From Escherichia coli O157:H7 (GTDB taxonomy: Bacteria > Pseudomonadota > Gammaproteobacteria > Enterobacterales > Enterobacteriaceae): DNA of 64,000 nucleotides. The stretch is from NCBI RefSeq assembly GCF_013167455.1, contig NZ_CP038328.1; one strand, written 5' to 3'. Positions 18,001 to 24,000 of the stretch are shown in pieces. A program made the position numbers. Each line of letters begins with the position of its first letter. Within the stretch, counting starts at the first letter, position 1.

Positions 18001-21000
18001 ACCGCGTACATGCTAAGAGGATTAGGCATTGGTTTTTCTTCCGGTACTACTGGTGCTGGAGGGGCGGCGTAAATGCCCTCTATCACTAAATGTTTGCGCT
18101 CAAAATCATCTGGCTCTCGATGATATACGTAACTCCAATCACCAAGGTTATCATTGCGCCTGCAACGGAAACCTATCGGCTCGGCTTCCAGCGCTGCCAG
18201 AGCAATTCGTGCCAGTTCTTCCGCTTCTTCTGCTGGCAGTACAACGTTGCTACCAGGTCCGTATGTTTCGCGCCACTGTTTGATTGTCAGCAGTCGCCCT
18301 TTGGTAATAGTGATCATGCCGCGTTTCCTTCTTTCTTATTAACAATCACACCGTCATATATTTCATTAAGGTGCCCTCTCAACTCCATGCGCCTTAATGC
18401 AGATAACATGTAATCGCATTCAACCTGCTTATTCCCAGTAAATGGCTTATCGTCAGGATTACCCCAACAGCAATTACCCTTGGGCCACCCATGTACTTTC
18501 CGTACTCTTCCGTTAACAACGTGAAGTAATCCCCAGCCAGGTGGTAAATCCTCAATTGAAATAATTCCCGGCTCACTAATAAAGAATCGCCAGTCGCCCA
18601 TTCCAAGAGACGGATTTTTACGGAAACGCTTTTTTCTATCTGCCAACAAGTCAGCACGAGAACACTTCGCCTCTATCAGGCATGATGCTGAATTTCTGAA
18701 TCCCATAGCATCTGGCTGTTCTCCGGTACTGGTTACGGCTATAAAGCGGTCATGAAAGCAAACCTTGAACCCGTTGCGCTTAAGGAACTTGTACGCAATC
18801 TGACAGAGTTCTCGGTGTGTTAACGCCATCTCACCCTCCTTTGATGCGAATGCCAGCAACACGTAGTGCATGTTCTAAGTCAGCCAGATAAAGCCAGCAG
18901 CCATTTTCTTTAGGTATCATGACGTGGCGCTCATCATCATTTATCGGATGTCCATATCGAAGGCCGTAGCGAGTCGGCAAATGAACTTCCCGCGTTTCCA
19001 GCTCTTTAACGCGTTCCTCCAGTTCGTAGACCCTGCATTGTTCTCTATCATCAATCAGATATAACCCAAGACATTCGCTTTCTACCCAACCGCCAAAATC
19101 ATGATCGTAATGCTCACATGAAAACTCACCGTCACCGTCCTTTGTTGGAATGGTGTAACTATCTAATGGGCCACCATATGTCGGCACATTTCCCAATGTT
19201 GGATGCTCAATCCACATGAAAAATGTACGTCCGGTTATTGGGCAAATATCTGGCCGCCATTGGTTACGAACAGCCTTGGTTTCGGATAATTTTTCAGCGT
19301 GTTGTTTTACTTCCTCAAGCTCAACACGCAGCTTTCCTACCGTTAGCGCAATCTCCTCGTTCTCCTGGTCGCGCTGTTTAATGTATTGCTGGTTTCTTTC
19401 CTGTTCATCCAGCAGTGCCAGCACAACCTGAGGTGTGGCTTTCATACGAAATGCCAGCAATTTTTGAGGCGTTGCTACTGTTTCAATTGCTACTGCCGCC
19501 TCACGCAGTGCCTGGTAATTAATTTTGCTCACTGGTTGCCTCCTTTGTGGATCTGCGCTGCGATGCACGAAAAAAAAGATTCCCGCGTATGACAGTTAAG
19601 AGCTGGTGCGAAAGCCGCGTTAAGAACGGCAGCATCACAGCCGTCATCGATATAGAGCGCAATTTTTTTCTCCAGGCGCGCTTTGGCTTCCTGCAACTGC
19701 ATACCCCGGCACGTACGCGGGATATACTCAGCAATTTGAGCGATAGATTTTTCGTTCTGTTTAAACATGATTCACCTCGACAGGCTTGATTGTGTCGATC
19801 AGCAGTCTGCGGCGAGTATTTTCTGCAAAGTGGCGGCGTCCGGTTTCTTTGTGGTAAAACTCGTTTTTGCCGACGACCCACATCCGCTCTGTCTGGTGAA
19901 GTTTTTTTACCTGCGGGCCGTCTTTGGTGATCACAATGCCGGTATGGGTTTTTACGATTGTCATGCCACTACCTCTTCGAATTTCAACTCCAATTGGTCA
20001 CCCCAGATTTCACATGATTCGGAACACGAACCAGTATCAAACCGCTTGGCCAGCACCATCGCTTGATACAAATTGCTGTAGTCGCTGTCGGCATACATCC
20101 TGGCAATCCCGTCAAGCGTCAGGTGACCACGGTACATAACGTCTTTACCTGTTCTGCGATGACCATCCCTGACGTGTTTGCCTGTAACCAGTTCATTAAA
20201 AACCCGCATCAGACCAGGTTCGTCTTTACATGCAAGCCCCAGCTTTTGCGTTGACTTTTTGATGCAGAAAACACAGTTCCCGAGGTGCTCCGGGATTTGC
20301 AAATCAAAAGGTTGTTTTCGCCACCACCGGATAACATCCGACTTATCAAAATCTGACAGTTCGGCAAGATACCGGACGCCCGGTTTCGGTTTCAGCCTAC
20401 GGGGTTCGTCTGCACGAATACCCAGCCACGTGATGTAGTTCCCTTGTCCGAAATGGTCATCGCAGTATTTTATGAAGGGGGTGAGTTTTAATCTGTCAGT
20501 GCAGAACGCGCCGCCGATGTATGGCGTGCCATATTTTTTTACCATGTCCATAAACGGTTTAAGCACCGGCATTCGCGTCTGAATATCCTTTGGTTCCCAT
20601 TCCGTATAACCATTTGGCTGCCCAAGCTCTGGATTTATATCGACCTGCAACACGGTTAGCGGAATATCCCAGAACTTCACAACCTCCCGAATAAACCGGT
20701 ACGTCAGCGGGTGTTCACATCCCGTATCCATGAGTATGTAATGAACGTTTTCACCAGCTTTTCTGCGTTGCTCCATAAGGTGGACGAGGTACGCCGATGT
20801 CCGACCGCCTGAAAAACTCACAACATGATGAGTGCTCATTTCTTCGTCTCGTTACGGGGAGGGGGTTAAATAGGTGGTAAGCTGGAATTGCCGGATGTTT
20901 ACCCGTGTCCGGGGTACGACCTCACGTTGCAGCGTACGAGAATGGACTATTGCTCAGTGTCGTTTGATGTCGGCTGAGGATATTCGCCTTGCTCTTGTAA

Positions 21001-24000
21001 CAGAGTTAGAAGAATGGAAAACCCCTCACGATGTGATGATTGATGAGTGTCGATCCCGGAATGATTGATGTTGTTAAATTCCAACATCGTGCTCCTGGCG
21101 ATAGCCTCAACGGTATTCCAGAATACTAATACATCTGTTTTCTGCTCTGTTTTATCAGCAACAGGAAGTTTGATATTTTGTTGAAATTTATTAATGCAAC
21201 CATTTTGAATATGTTCCTCGTGCTTTTCATTGTCATAAGCATACAGCCCGACAAAAACATCTCGCACGTTACGGGATATATTTTCCAGATTCGCCTTTGG
21301 TTCCTTTGTTAAATCAAGCACCGATAAATGGGCTTTAAGCGTATCCGCAGCTATTTTCTGAATATCCTCTGGTAAATCTTTAAATTGCATAGTATACCCT
21401 CCAAGAACTGTGTATTTTCTCGTGAAATATGAGCGATATGTCGTGACGTCCCTGTCACAGATTTCATCACACTGAGAACGTGCCGATGAAGGTTAAGATA
21501 TCTTCTTCTTCGAAACGCTCTTTCAGCAGGTCACGGAACTCTTTGGCAATTTCTTCTTCCGCAGCTTCAACACGCACGATACGTAGCACCAGAACAGGCT
21601 GTTCGCTTGTCAGAATGCTTAATCGCAGCGTGAATTCCCTGTTGCCCAGGCCCTCGTATGGGATGCATTCAAAGCGGAAAGTGGCAGGCATGATTTCTTT
21701 GCTTTTAGCCTCCACGGACTCCATGACTGAGCGGCTACCGCTGAAGTTTTGCTCTTCATATTCAGCACTGCGTTTTGCATCGATGGTAAGACGACGGACA
21801 GCAGAGATAGCCTGTTTGATGTCCAGCACATTACCGTCGCTGTCATAGGCTGTGAGGAAGTCGGCCCAGTCTTCCAGCCATTCAGCGAGAGACTTCTGGA
21901 GTTGTTTTTTGCCGTCAACGTCACGCAATGCGCGATATGGTGATGTGGCTTTCAGTTCCAGCAGTGCCTTGTTGTCAGCGTGTCCAGGTTGCTCCAGAGT
22001 GCCGATATTGAACACAGTGACTGCTTTCATCGTTTCCGCGTTAATGAAGCAGCGGGAGTGCTCATCGGCATACCCTTTGCTGTATTCAACAAAGTCATCA
22101 ATACTGGTTGTGGTCATGACTCCACGGAAACGAAAACGTTCTGTCATGAATCGTTCCAGACTTTCGATATTTACATTGTCCGGCAATAACGCAACAGGGC
22201 ATTCCGTAAGCGGCAAATTTTCACCAGAAAAAGCAGTAGTGGTGAGTTTTACAATTTCTTTAATGGCATTGCTATCTAACTGAGACATGTATATTTACCT
22301 TTAATTTATGGATTTGGGGATAATGCGCGAGCGTTTTAAGGCGGGGATTATTCAGCGTAAAACAGCGTCATGTTGACCCTGTTTATCGAAAAGCTGTCCC
22401 TGGTCTTTCTGGAACAAAGTAAGCTCACCACCTTTATTTACAAACATCGGGGTGTTAGTTGTGTCTTCTTCTGATTTACTACCACGCATTGTCGGGCGTG
22501 TGAATTTTAGTTTATGGGAAACTGATACGCGATTTTCATCAAGTGAAGATAATTCGAATTCAACACATACCTTTCCTTTTTTGTTTGTGCTGTTTACGCC
22601 AAAGGCAACTTCACTTAATACCGCGCCAAGTTTGTTAACAAATACCCCGCCGTCGAGGTCGTTAATGAAAATATTAACATCTGTCTGATGCTGACTCATA
22701 TTTATATCTCCGTGTAGAGAGTGTATTGAGGCTTCGGTTGTTTACTGCATTTAAAGCCTGGTTTTGTTTGTGAATTAAAAACTATCGCTGCCGTACTGCC
22801 AGTAACCTGGGGCGTCCGTGTGATTCGGGTTTACGTTTTTGCTGCGATTGTCTTTGTCTTTGAGAGTGGAAACCATATTTGCTACAGTTTCTGGTTTCTT
22901 TCCTTCAGCTTTTTCTTTCAGTGTCTGCCCTGTTTCTGCAATGAATGGAATGCGGATTTCCATCTGGTAACCGTCTGCGCCAGTCTTTCTGTTTGTGGTT
23001 AATACTTTCTGGAGGACGAGTCCGATTTTCTTTCCGTGAAACTCAGGTGCAACATATTTACTGACGGAAACCATATGCTGCGTTAACTGCCCAATTCCTG
23101 TGCATCCCATCATGGCGTGAATAATGCTCGCCCCAAATTTATTTTCAGTGCCGTCATTCTTCTGAACACAAACACTGAGATATTGGATTTTCCGTCCGTC
23201 GTCGGATTCTCCAGAAAACTCAATGAATCGGGCACCTTTTTCTGATTGCTTGAGTTCTGCTTCGGTGATGTTAATGATATGCGCACCCGTTTCGGTAATA
23301 AAACCACCTTGTCCGGCGGTCAGTGCTGATTCTTCGTTATAAGTAAAAATCACTTCATCCATTAGTTATTAACCCCCCATTGTTCTCCAAATACAAAACC
23401 AATTTCTGCCAGTGCTTCGTCCATTTTGTCGATGAACTCCGGCACCATCTCATCAAAACTCGCCATGTACTTTTCATCCCGCTCGACCACGACATAATGC
23501 AGGCCTTCACGCTTCATGCGTGGGTCGTAGTTGGCGAAGTACCAGGCGTCCTTGTCTGTAACCCACATGCTGAATTGCACCTGGGCCATGTAAGCAGGCT
23601 TGATAGCGTCAAAGCCGCCAAGCCGGAACTTCATGAAGTCGCGGGAAGTAAAGGGGCATTTAAGCTCAAGACCGTTACCGTCACTGCATAAACCATCGGG
23701 AGAGCAGGCGGTGCGCATGCTTTCGTCACGAAAAATTATGGGTGTTTCCGAGACGGTAACATCCGCGATAAATTCAAAGAGGGCACGGGCATCATCTTCA
23801 TATTGCTTTCCCCATGCGAGCGACTTAGCGTTAACTTCCGGTGCCACGCCAGTACAAACTTCAGCCAGCAGGGTGTGGAAGTATGACATTTTTGTATCAG
23901 GCCATTTGCTGCCGGAACGTGGCTTTGCTATCACATTGTGAACTTCTGAAGCAGTGATAACACCGAGTCTCAGCTTGTGCCATCCATCATCGCCCTGGTC

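Follow-up and report, generated by a model that had tools for sequence, protein, structure and literature searches.

A short, AT-rich open reading frame (ORF) in the early-left operon of a Shiga toxin prophage raises the question of what kind of gene it is and how its product could serve the phage. The ORF, designated ORF147, occupies positions 20947-21390 on the minus strand of a 64,000-nucleotide stretch of Escherichia coli O157:H7 DNA (contig NZ_CP038328.1). This stretch, called the window throughout, consists of E. coli chromosome and a PA2-like short-tailed Stx2a prophage (Sepvirinae, Oslovirus), which adjoins the tRNA-Arg gene at 12445-12516. A sequence-only reading had regarded the ORF as an orphan, possibly a moron with a host-takeover or anti-defence role. 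On the evidence of its sequence relatives, ORF147 is a member of a widespread conserved hypothetical family that is already present in the databases. The reading which we favour, and to which we give a little better than an even chance, is that it is an accessory gene of the exo-xis interval of the PA2-like prophage, encoding a modular helical protein that would be made from pL and would act by binding a protein.

Gene, family and operon of ORF147

ORF147 comprises 147 codons, from an ATG at 21390-21388 to a TAG at 20947-20949, and a Shine-Dalgarno sequence, GGAGGG, can be read at 21402-21397 on the minus strand, 7 nt 5' of the ATG. The 76-nt spacer upstream of the gene is 100% identical in TL-2011c and PhiR12_3. 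ORF147 was called as a coding sequence in 59 of the 60 genomes sampled, and its GC content per codon position (0.52/0.28/0.38) shows a coding-like pattern. It is a genuine protein-coding gene, and the 147-aa ORF of the sequence-only reading was found at the stated position, but on the minus strand; it is preceded by a ribosome-binding site (RBS).

The protein matched phrog_1363, a family of unknown function, with an E-value of 2.4e-64, residues 1-128 aligning to profile positions 1-138 of 139, and such a near full-length match to the hidden Markov model (HMM) places it within the family. An identical protein (100%) is encoded by the Shigella phage Ss-VASD (UniProt A0A0H4IQ60), proteins of 99.3% identity by about 40 Stx2a phages (PA2, ArgO145 and VT2phi_272 among them), and proteins of 89.8% identity by TL-2011c and the P13374-type O104:H4 phages. 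ORF147 occurs in 74 phage records and in 122-125 of the 5426 complete E. coli genomes. Its exact sequence was found on at least 1000 contigs and two further 147-aa variants on 761 and 518 contigs, the intact form being present on more than 2000. It is labelled hypothetical in every source. The orphan status proposed earlier could therefore not be upheld: with relatives of its N-terminal module distributed across the Enterobacterales, ORF147 is clearly homologous to a conserved early gene found in lambdoid and Rac/Qin-like prophages, one without known function. As matters stand, it is an ordinary conserved hypothetical accessory gene. In the clustering at 90% identity, ORF147 is grouped with its unrelated neighbour YfdQ under a 273-aa YfdQ representative, which looks like a clustering artefact; as a consequence, the exact ORF147 protein has no row of its own in the homology search.

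The operon was mapped from the Prokaryotic Genome Annotation Pipeline (PGAP) annotations of near-identical prophages and from a blastn map. Along the leftward early operon the repressor is followed by a type II restriction-modification (R-M) pair, Rha, kil, GamL, RecT and exo (23362-24051). It continues with a gene for a single-strand DNA binding (SSB)-like protein, a phrog_204 gene, YfdQ/DUF2303 (21467-22288), ORF147 and a gene resembling 3'-phosphoadenosine 5'-phosphosulphate (PAPS) reductase (19961-20839), after which two small ORFs and an Ead/Ea22-like gene lead on to xis and int. ORF147 is co-oriented with these genes and lies between exo and int, approximately 9 kb downstream of the repressor, so the early-left location given by the sequence-only reading was correct. 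By position it belongs to the exo-xis interval, and its orientation, together with the lack of intervening signals, suggests that it would be transcribed from pL.

No promoter was detected 5' of ORF147 in a consensus scan, a kind of scan that gives weak evidence. The sole sigma-70-like match at the gene was a 9/12 site inside the ORF, which is at chance level (4 found, 4.8 expected). No terminator was found by scanning 3' of the gene, the downstream spacer having a folding z-score of +0.45. The flanking spacers showed no unusual folding, and a scan of the 18-26 kb region against Rfam returned no match. Of the attributes of a moron, ORF147 has the deviant composition; consensus scans gave it neither a promoter nor a terminator of its own, only an RBS.

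The GC content of ORF147 is 0.394 and that of the region 20860-21400 is 0.418, as against a mean of 0.486 for the window. Among the 444-bp segments of the whole window the gene ranks at the 6.1st percentile (z -1.7), among those of the Stx prophage at the 2.4th (z -2.2) and among those of the early-left operon at the 1.8th (z -2.3). The deviation is real but modest, not extreme, and calculation upheld this part of the earlier description. The composition is also unlike that of the flanking genes: GC and third-position GC (GC3) are 0.394 and 0.378 in ORF147, 0.488 and 0.532 in the PAPS-reductase-like gene, and 0.481 and 0.507 in YfdQ. The phrog_204 gene (22352-22699, minus strand) is similarly AT-rich (GC 0.408, GC3 0.362), another low-GC patch lies nearby at 25274-25999 (GC about 0.385), and far lower values occur in a neighbouring prophage remnant. 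Both flanks had been described as low in GC together with the ORF. This held for the upstream spacer only; since the stretch 20840-20946, 3' of the gene, is GC-rich (0.54), the low-GC patch consists of ORF147 and its upstream spacer.

Modules, relatives and alleles

Four parts can be distinguished in ORF147, all given here on the minus strand. Module A (codons 1-55, 21226-21390) is a conserved helical hairpin with the motif M-[EQ]-F-K-D-L-P-x2-[IV]-Q-x-I-A-A ... R-N-V-R-x-A-F-x2-L-Y, in which M1, L6, P7, Q11, A14 and F46 are invariant. It is followed by a linker (codons 56-85, 21136-21225), which is predicted to be disordered, is the most AT-rich part of the gene (GC 0.311) and varies in length by allele. 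Module C (codons 86-134, 20989-21135) is a second helical pair shared with the B-C proteins of phrog_25397, and the last part (codons 135-147, 20950-20988) is an acidic disordered tail, absent from the TL-2011c/O104:H4 allele. In profile searches, residues 1-55 also matched phrog_9419 (E 1.2e-17) and the families 2151, 6937 and 33007, and residues 74-147 matched phrog_25397.

The structure was predicted with AlphaFold2 (AF2). With eight sequences the model was poor, with a predicted local distance difference test (pLDDT) value of 53.8; the model built on a 35-sequence alignment was confident in the N-terminal hairpin only, where pLDDT was about 80 over residues 1-50 and helices were placed at residues 8-24 and 32-55. 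Residues 57-85 and 135-147 were predicted as disordered (pLDDT below 50). With a pI of 5.0 and a net charge of -9 the protein is acidic, and no transmembrane or hydrophobic segment was found in it. It is accordingly predicted to be a small acidic all-helical protein, without enzymatic, DNA-binding or membrane features.

Scans of ORF147 and 19 module A sequences against Pfam (cut-off E <= 0.01), NCBIfam and PADLOC assigned no family. A profile search against all Protein Data Bank (PDB) sequences gave an unrelated protein as its best match (E 0.31), Foldseek against the PDB gave generic helical bundles alone (best E 1.1), and the only Foldseek match in BFVD was a 52-aa fragment of the same family from phage phi191. 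A literature search by accession, peptide string and PHROG identifier returned no papers. When 1.84 billion cluster representatives were searched with an HMM, only 54 relatives were obtained, all of them enterobacterial and unnamed, and nearly all share just the first 50-64 residues of ORF147. The complete A-linker-C layout is retained by P0021 (129 aa) and P0056 (150 aa), the latter 28% identical to ORF147 over its full length by tblastn, so that this layout persists in homologues down to 28-41% identity.

When module A was used as the profile, 80 proteins were recovered, mostly stand-alone proteins of 50-75 aa (median 66 aa), from Klebsiella, Raoultella, Serratia, Salmonella, Hafnia, Yersinia, Kluyvera, Proteus and Providencia. 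Since the stand-alone form is so widespread, the ancestral unit appears to be a mini-protein of about 50 residues. In Klebsiella, Serratia and one Rac-like element the module A gene begins 200-260 nt after the repressor gene and is followed by kil and by genes for exonuclease VIII, Xis and Int. Qin-like E. coli prophages, like the phages PPompW and Evi, have it between ydfA-ydfC on the one side and dicB or kil on the other. In Proteus it comes second in the early-left operon, and in the Osloviruses the ORF147 gene stands directly after yfdQ. No member of the module A family was found in the Rac and Qin prophages of E. coli K-12, and the small genes ydaF, ydaG, ydfA, ydfB and ydfC of these two prophages were tested as relatives or remnants of ORF147 and are not related. 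Stand-alone module A, in the N position after the repressor, was also considered as an N-like antiterminator; this was rejected by inference, the ORF147 protein being acidic and having no arginine-rich motif. The name 'formyltetrahydrofolate deformylase' is attached in NCBI and UniRef to three of the stand-alone module A proteins, of 63-66 aa (P0073, P0101 and P0110, from Serratia fonticola, Hafnia alvei and Salmonella diarizonae). No NCBIfam model supports that name, which therefore looks like a propagated misannotation.

Within E. coli the homologues combine the modules differently: A-linker-C is represented by ORF147 and its 158-aa alleles, from which it is set apart by a 33-nt indel in the linker; A-B by P0012 and phage phi367; B-C by P0013, P0015 and P0017; and X-B-C by P0014 and P0016. 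Homology of TL-2011c to the window extends from 24100 to 20836, beyond which the PAPS-reductase block (20835-18849) is skipped in its entirety. That of PhiR12_3 ends at 20942, five bases past the ORF147 stop codon, and that of phi367 stops at 21168, where the linker meets module C, to reappear at 20923. The downstream spacer (20836-20946, no strand assigned) therefore contains the breakpoints 20942, 20923 and 20836, and no terminator-like fold. By these alignments, recombination breakpoints fall at the module borders of ORF147, and the modules have been reshuffled among E. coli prophages. All the Oslovirus relatives compared carry ORF147, with variation in its C-terminal half and in the downstream PAPS-reductase block. 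Deviant composition, the exo-xis accessory location and the mosaic breakpoints together imply that ORF147 behaves as an exchangeable accessory cassette.

The TL-2011c/O104:H4 allele has a TGA at codon 132 (CAA/CGA to TGA), which gives a natural 131-aa form. Of the 122 carrier genomes, 64 fell within the 90-95% identity band, and the sampled O104:H4 and TL-2011c-type genomes in this band were all 94.4% identical. The ratio of nonsynonymous to synonymous substitution rates (dN/dS, Nei-Gojobori) for divergent pairs was 0.17-0.47 in module A and 0.16-0.8 in module C.

The 3' end of ORF147 overlaps the 5'-truncated relic of a convergent antisense gene (20943-21068, plus strand), which comprises the last 41 or so codons of a family of 89-99 aa and lies inside an ORF at 20874-21068. 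In relatives, a convergent 89-99 aa gene of this kind covers the final 100-130 nt of the A-C or B-C gene; intact copies are found at L004 6350-6646, L011 603-902 and L007 2842-3111, and the family consensus is M..KLNQARW..HYETARLNY.LECFGD...GWTI.QCR.MS.DDIRLAL..EL. Residues 56-89 of the family align to 20943-21044 of the window with 79% identity (tblastn), and the homology stops at the ORF147 stop codon. The non-overlapping N-terminal half of the antisense protein is conserved as well, hence it is a real gene where intact. The full gene is retained in 11 of the 116 E. coli genomes that match the region; PhiR12_3 has a 50-codon antisense frame without a start codon. Conservation in the overlap is 43-77% for the antisense and 30-74% for the sense frame. 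The family is unannotated and had no match in Pfam or PHROG, and it is rarely called by gene finders, being represented by only two clusters among 5.8 billion proteins.

Weighing the possible roles of ORF147

According to the favoured reading, ORF147 would be transcribed from pL upon induction or infection, and its product would act stoichiometrically by binding another protein, of the host or of the phage, rather than as a catalyst. The low GC content would then reflect membership in a horizontally exchanged pool of accessory genes. Since no catalytic, nucleic-acid-binding or membrane features are seen and a small hairpin is conserved, stoichiometric protein binding is the most economical mechanism, and the small exo-xis proteins already characterised appear to work in this way. 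The exo-xis genes are described as early-transcribed, with an effect on the choice between lysis and lysogeny; one of their products, Orf63, forms a small helical dimer that has a ligand-binding cleft and is confined to temperate phages (PMC10869804). We hold the more specific designation of ORF147 as a small acidic protein-binding factor made from pL with low confidence.

Several observations weigh against this reading. The term 'protein-binding factor' is a default drawn from absent features and not a positive finding. The two module C helices (residues 87-107 and 115-134) were modelled with low confidence (pLDDT 50-60). About half of the carrier genomes lie in the identity band of the codon-132-stop allele, the stop being assigned by band and not genome by genome. 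Frameshifted variants exist (P0008, P0019 and P0025, the last on 55 contigs), and dN/dS among close alleles, which differ by few substitutions, is about 1. ORF147 may thus be weakly constrained, in its C-terminal part at the least.

A rather unlikely alternative is the one closest to the sequence-only reading, namely that ORF147 is an anti-defence or host-takeover moron, whose product neutralises host immunity or a host process early after entry into the cell, the variable C-termini being the outcome of an arms race. An AT-rich accessory gene within the early-left operon, encoding a small, acidic, helical protein in which one conserved N-terminal module is joined to several alternative C-termini, would suit such a role, and elsewhere module A is immediate-early and located beside kil-type host-takeover genes. 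However, with no promoter found 5' and no terminator 3' of ORF147, the label of moron in the strict sense is not supported, and much of the apparent C-terminal diversity is frameshift debris in cryptic prophages. The possible counter-defence or host-takeover role received no positive support from the searches: no informative match came from Pfam, NCBIfam, the PDB (profile and Foldseek), BFVD or PADLOC, the last of which covers defence and not anti-defence. A published DefenseFinder anti-defence scan of PA2-like phages, among them PA2 itself, which carries ORF147 at 99.3% identity, reported only methyltransferases and Gam (PMC12502783).

It is likewise of small probability that ORF147 modulates the choice between lysis and lysogeny, as do the exo-xis genes Ea22, Orf60a, Orf61, Orf63 and Ea8.5. 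ORF147 is placed in the interval from exo to xis, separated from the Ead/Ea22-like gene downstream by two small ORFs and one further gene, and stand-alone module A genes directly follow the repressor gene. According to published abstracts, exo-xis genes of lambda and of Stx phages alter lysogenisation and induction. Against this, the profile search of the PDB gave nothing below E 0.3 and so no sequence relation to the solved exo-xis proteins, the exo-xis gene set here is unlike those of lambda and phi24B, and position is all that speaks for such a function. Counter-defence, host takeover and lysis-lysogeny tuning do not appear separable on the present sequence evidence.

ORF147 could also be a by-product of recombination under little or no selection, that is, a chimeric ORF born at a mosaic junction, whose frame stays open by chance and through the constraint that adjacent or overlapping sequences impose. 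The breakpoints at 21168, 20942 and 20836, the nonsense allele whose identity band takes in about half of the carriers, the frameshifted forms, the dN/dS of about 1 among close alleles and an antisense frame that is conserved in the 3' overlap at least as well as the sense frame are all in agreement with this. We nevertheless consider it quite unlikely. The A-linker-C architecture is kept at 28-41% identity in Rac-like prophages, dN/dS below 0.5 was obtained for divergent pairs, the strong RBS is conserved, the intact form is present on more than 2000 contigs, and a frame of 147 codons in DNA of 39% GC is unlikely to be open by chance.

That the locus acts as an RNA or antisense gene (the plus-strand ORF 20874-21068 or a cis-acting transcript) and not through ORF147 is very improbable, for although the antisense family is real where intact, with a conserved N-terminal half, and GGGGAGGGGG stands 8-11 nt upstream of the GTG at 20874, the window keeps the last 41 or so antisense codons only, with homology that stops at the ORF147 stop codon, the PhiR12_3 frame has 50 codons and no start, and no plus-strand promoter-like site nearby, Rfam match or unusual fold was found.

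A further reading, which we regard as rather doubtful, concerns the module A family as a whole. Module A would mark an unstudied family of immediate-early prophage proteins of the Enterobacterales, as a rule the first to be expressed upon derepression, whose hairpin docks on a conserved target in host or phage. The swapped C-terminal modules, among them module C in Stx phages, would add or retarget an activity, which might be counter-defence, takeover of the host or regulation of the genetic switch. Where the arrangement is intact, the gene and the overlapping convergent antisense gene, which stands where Rac has sieB, could then be a transcriptional-interference pair for lysogen versus lytic functions.

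ORF147 is carried by many clinically important Stx2a prophages, among them PA2-type phages of O157 and O145 and the phage type of the O104:H4 outbreak. Prophage induction, on which exo-xis genes reportedly have an influence, is linked in published abstracts to Shiga-toxin gene expression; a role of ORF147 in lysis-lysogeny or host range would thus be of some practical interest. What the present analysis contributes is the domain map, the mosaic breakpoints, the antisense relic and the connection to the early 'MEFKDLP' proteins that stand alone. These results point to three constructs, namely module A by itself, the complete protein and the 131-aa form that occurs naturally.

Neighbouring features and comparison with known systems

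Other genes of the same operon deserve mention. The product of the PAPS-reductase-like gene (19961-20839, minus strand) matches the PADLOC model SspD (E 2e-14) as well as DndC and BrxP models, and is a DNA-modification-type PP-loop ATPase in a phage early operon; the gene belongs to the block of about 2 kb (20835-18849) that is missing from TL-2011c. The 195-aa SSB-like protein (22775-23362, minus strand), whose gene adjoins the phrog_204 gene, matches phrog_743 ('single strand DNA binding protein') and has no Pfam SSB domain, and the phrog_204 gene itself is a yfdP-type gene upstream of yfdQ. The R-M pair (about 27277-30221, minus strand, mapped from L001 19627-22046) is co-oriented with and directly downstream of the repressor and consists of an Eco57I-like methylase and a BsuBI/PstI-family endonuclease; in some relatives a Panacea-domain pair adjoins it.

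A second, degraded prophage remnant of P22/Sf6-like type is located between the chromosomal flank and the tRNA-Arg gene (3913-12441) and is not present in the O103:H2 strain 12009. It encodes a resolvase, a tail needle knob, a DUF2824 protein, a gp7 ejection protein, an integrase (11123-12316) and an injectosome translocase with a fused acyltransferase domain, and it contains the lowest-GC patches of the window (4866-7442, GC 0.295; 10265-11367, GC 0.266). The following RNA features reached the Rfam gathering score: two copies of sRNA-Xcc1 in the exo-xis region (16539-16624 and 17074-17163, minus strand), a C4 antisense RNA next to isrK (26595-26782, minus strand), STnc100 with AgvB (37656-37930), and the ALIL pseudoknot of an IS3-family frameshift element (51240-51356, minus strand), which suggests an insertion sequence (IS) at that site.

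Among known systems, the slot of ORF147 downstream of yfdP-yfdQ is shared by yfdR, which occupies it in CPS-53, ST64B and LLS (PMC12315714). YfdR is described as an HD-domain 5'-nucleotidase that binds DnaA (PMC4776307). ORF147 had no match to an HD domain in Pfam (E <= 0.01), and its model consists of helical hairpins with no catalytic motif. YfdR is thus an alternative occupant of the slot and not a homologue.

Ea22, Orf63, Orf61, Orf60a and Ea8.5 resemble ORF147 in their interval, timing, small size and lack of an enzymatic domain, but have no detectable sequence or fold relation to it; the Pfam Ead_Ea22 match in the window belongs to the nearby gene at 18831-19568 and not to ORF147.

The phrog_9419 'MEFKDLP' proteins of Rac/Qin-like prophages of the Enterobacterales share with ORF147 the early-left operon and the N-terminal hairpin of about 50 aa with its motif (M-E/Q-F-K-D-L-P ... 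A-F-x2-L-Y). They differ from it in having neither linker nor module C and in their position after the repressor or after ydfA-ydfC instead of yfdQ: they are stand-alone proteins of 50-75 aa, typically encoded right after the repressor, whereas ORF147 has 147 aa and is encoded about 9 kb downstream, after yfdQ. The phrog_25397 B-C proteins (e.g. P0017, 166 aa) are like ORF147 in module C (about 75% identity) and in the overlapping antisense gene; unlike it, they have module B at the N-terminus, are encoded in the replication/nin region on the pR side and retain the antisense gene intact.

The closest counterparts are the alleles themselves. 'ORF16' of the P13374-type O104:H4 phages is a more divergent allele of ORF147, while the phrog_1363 gene of Ss-VASD, PA2, ArgO145 and VT2phi_272 is the same gene in the same slot after YfdQ (DUF2303), with no difference of substance.

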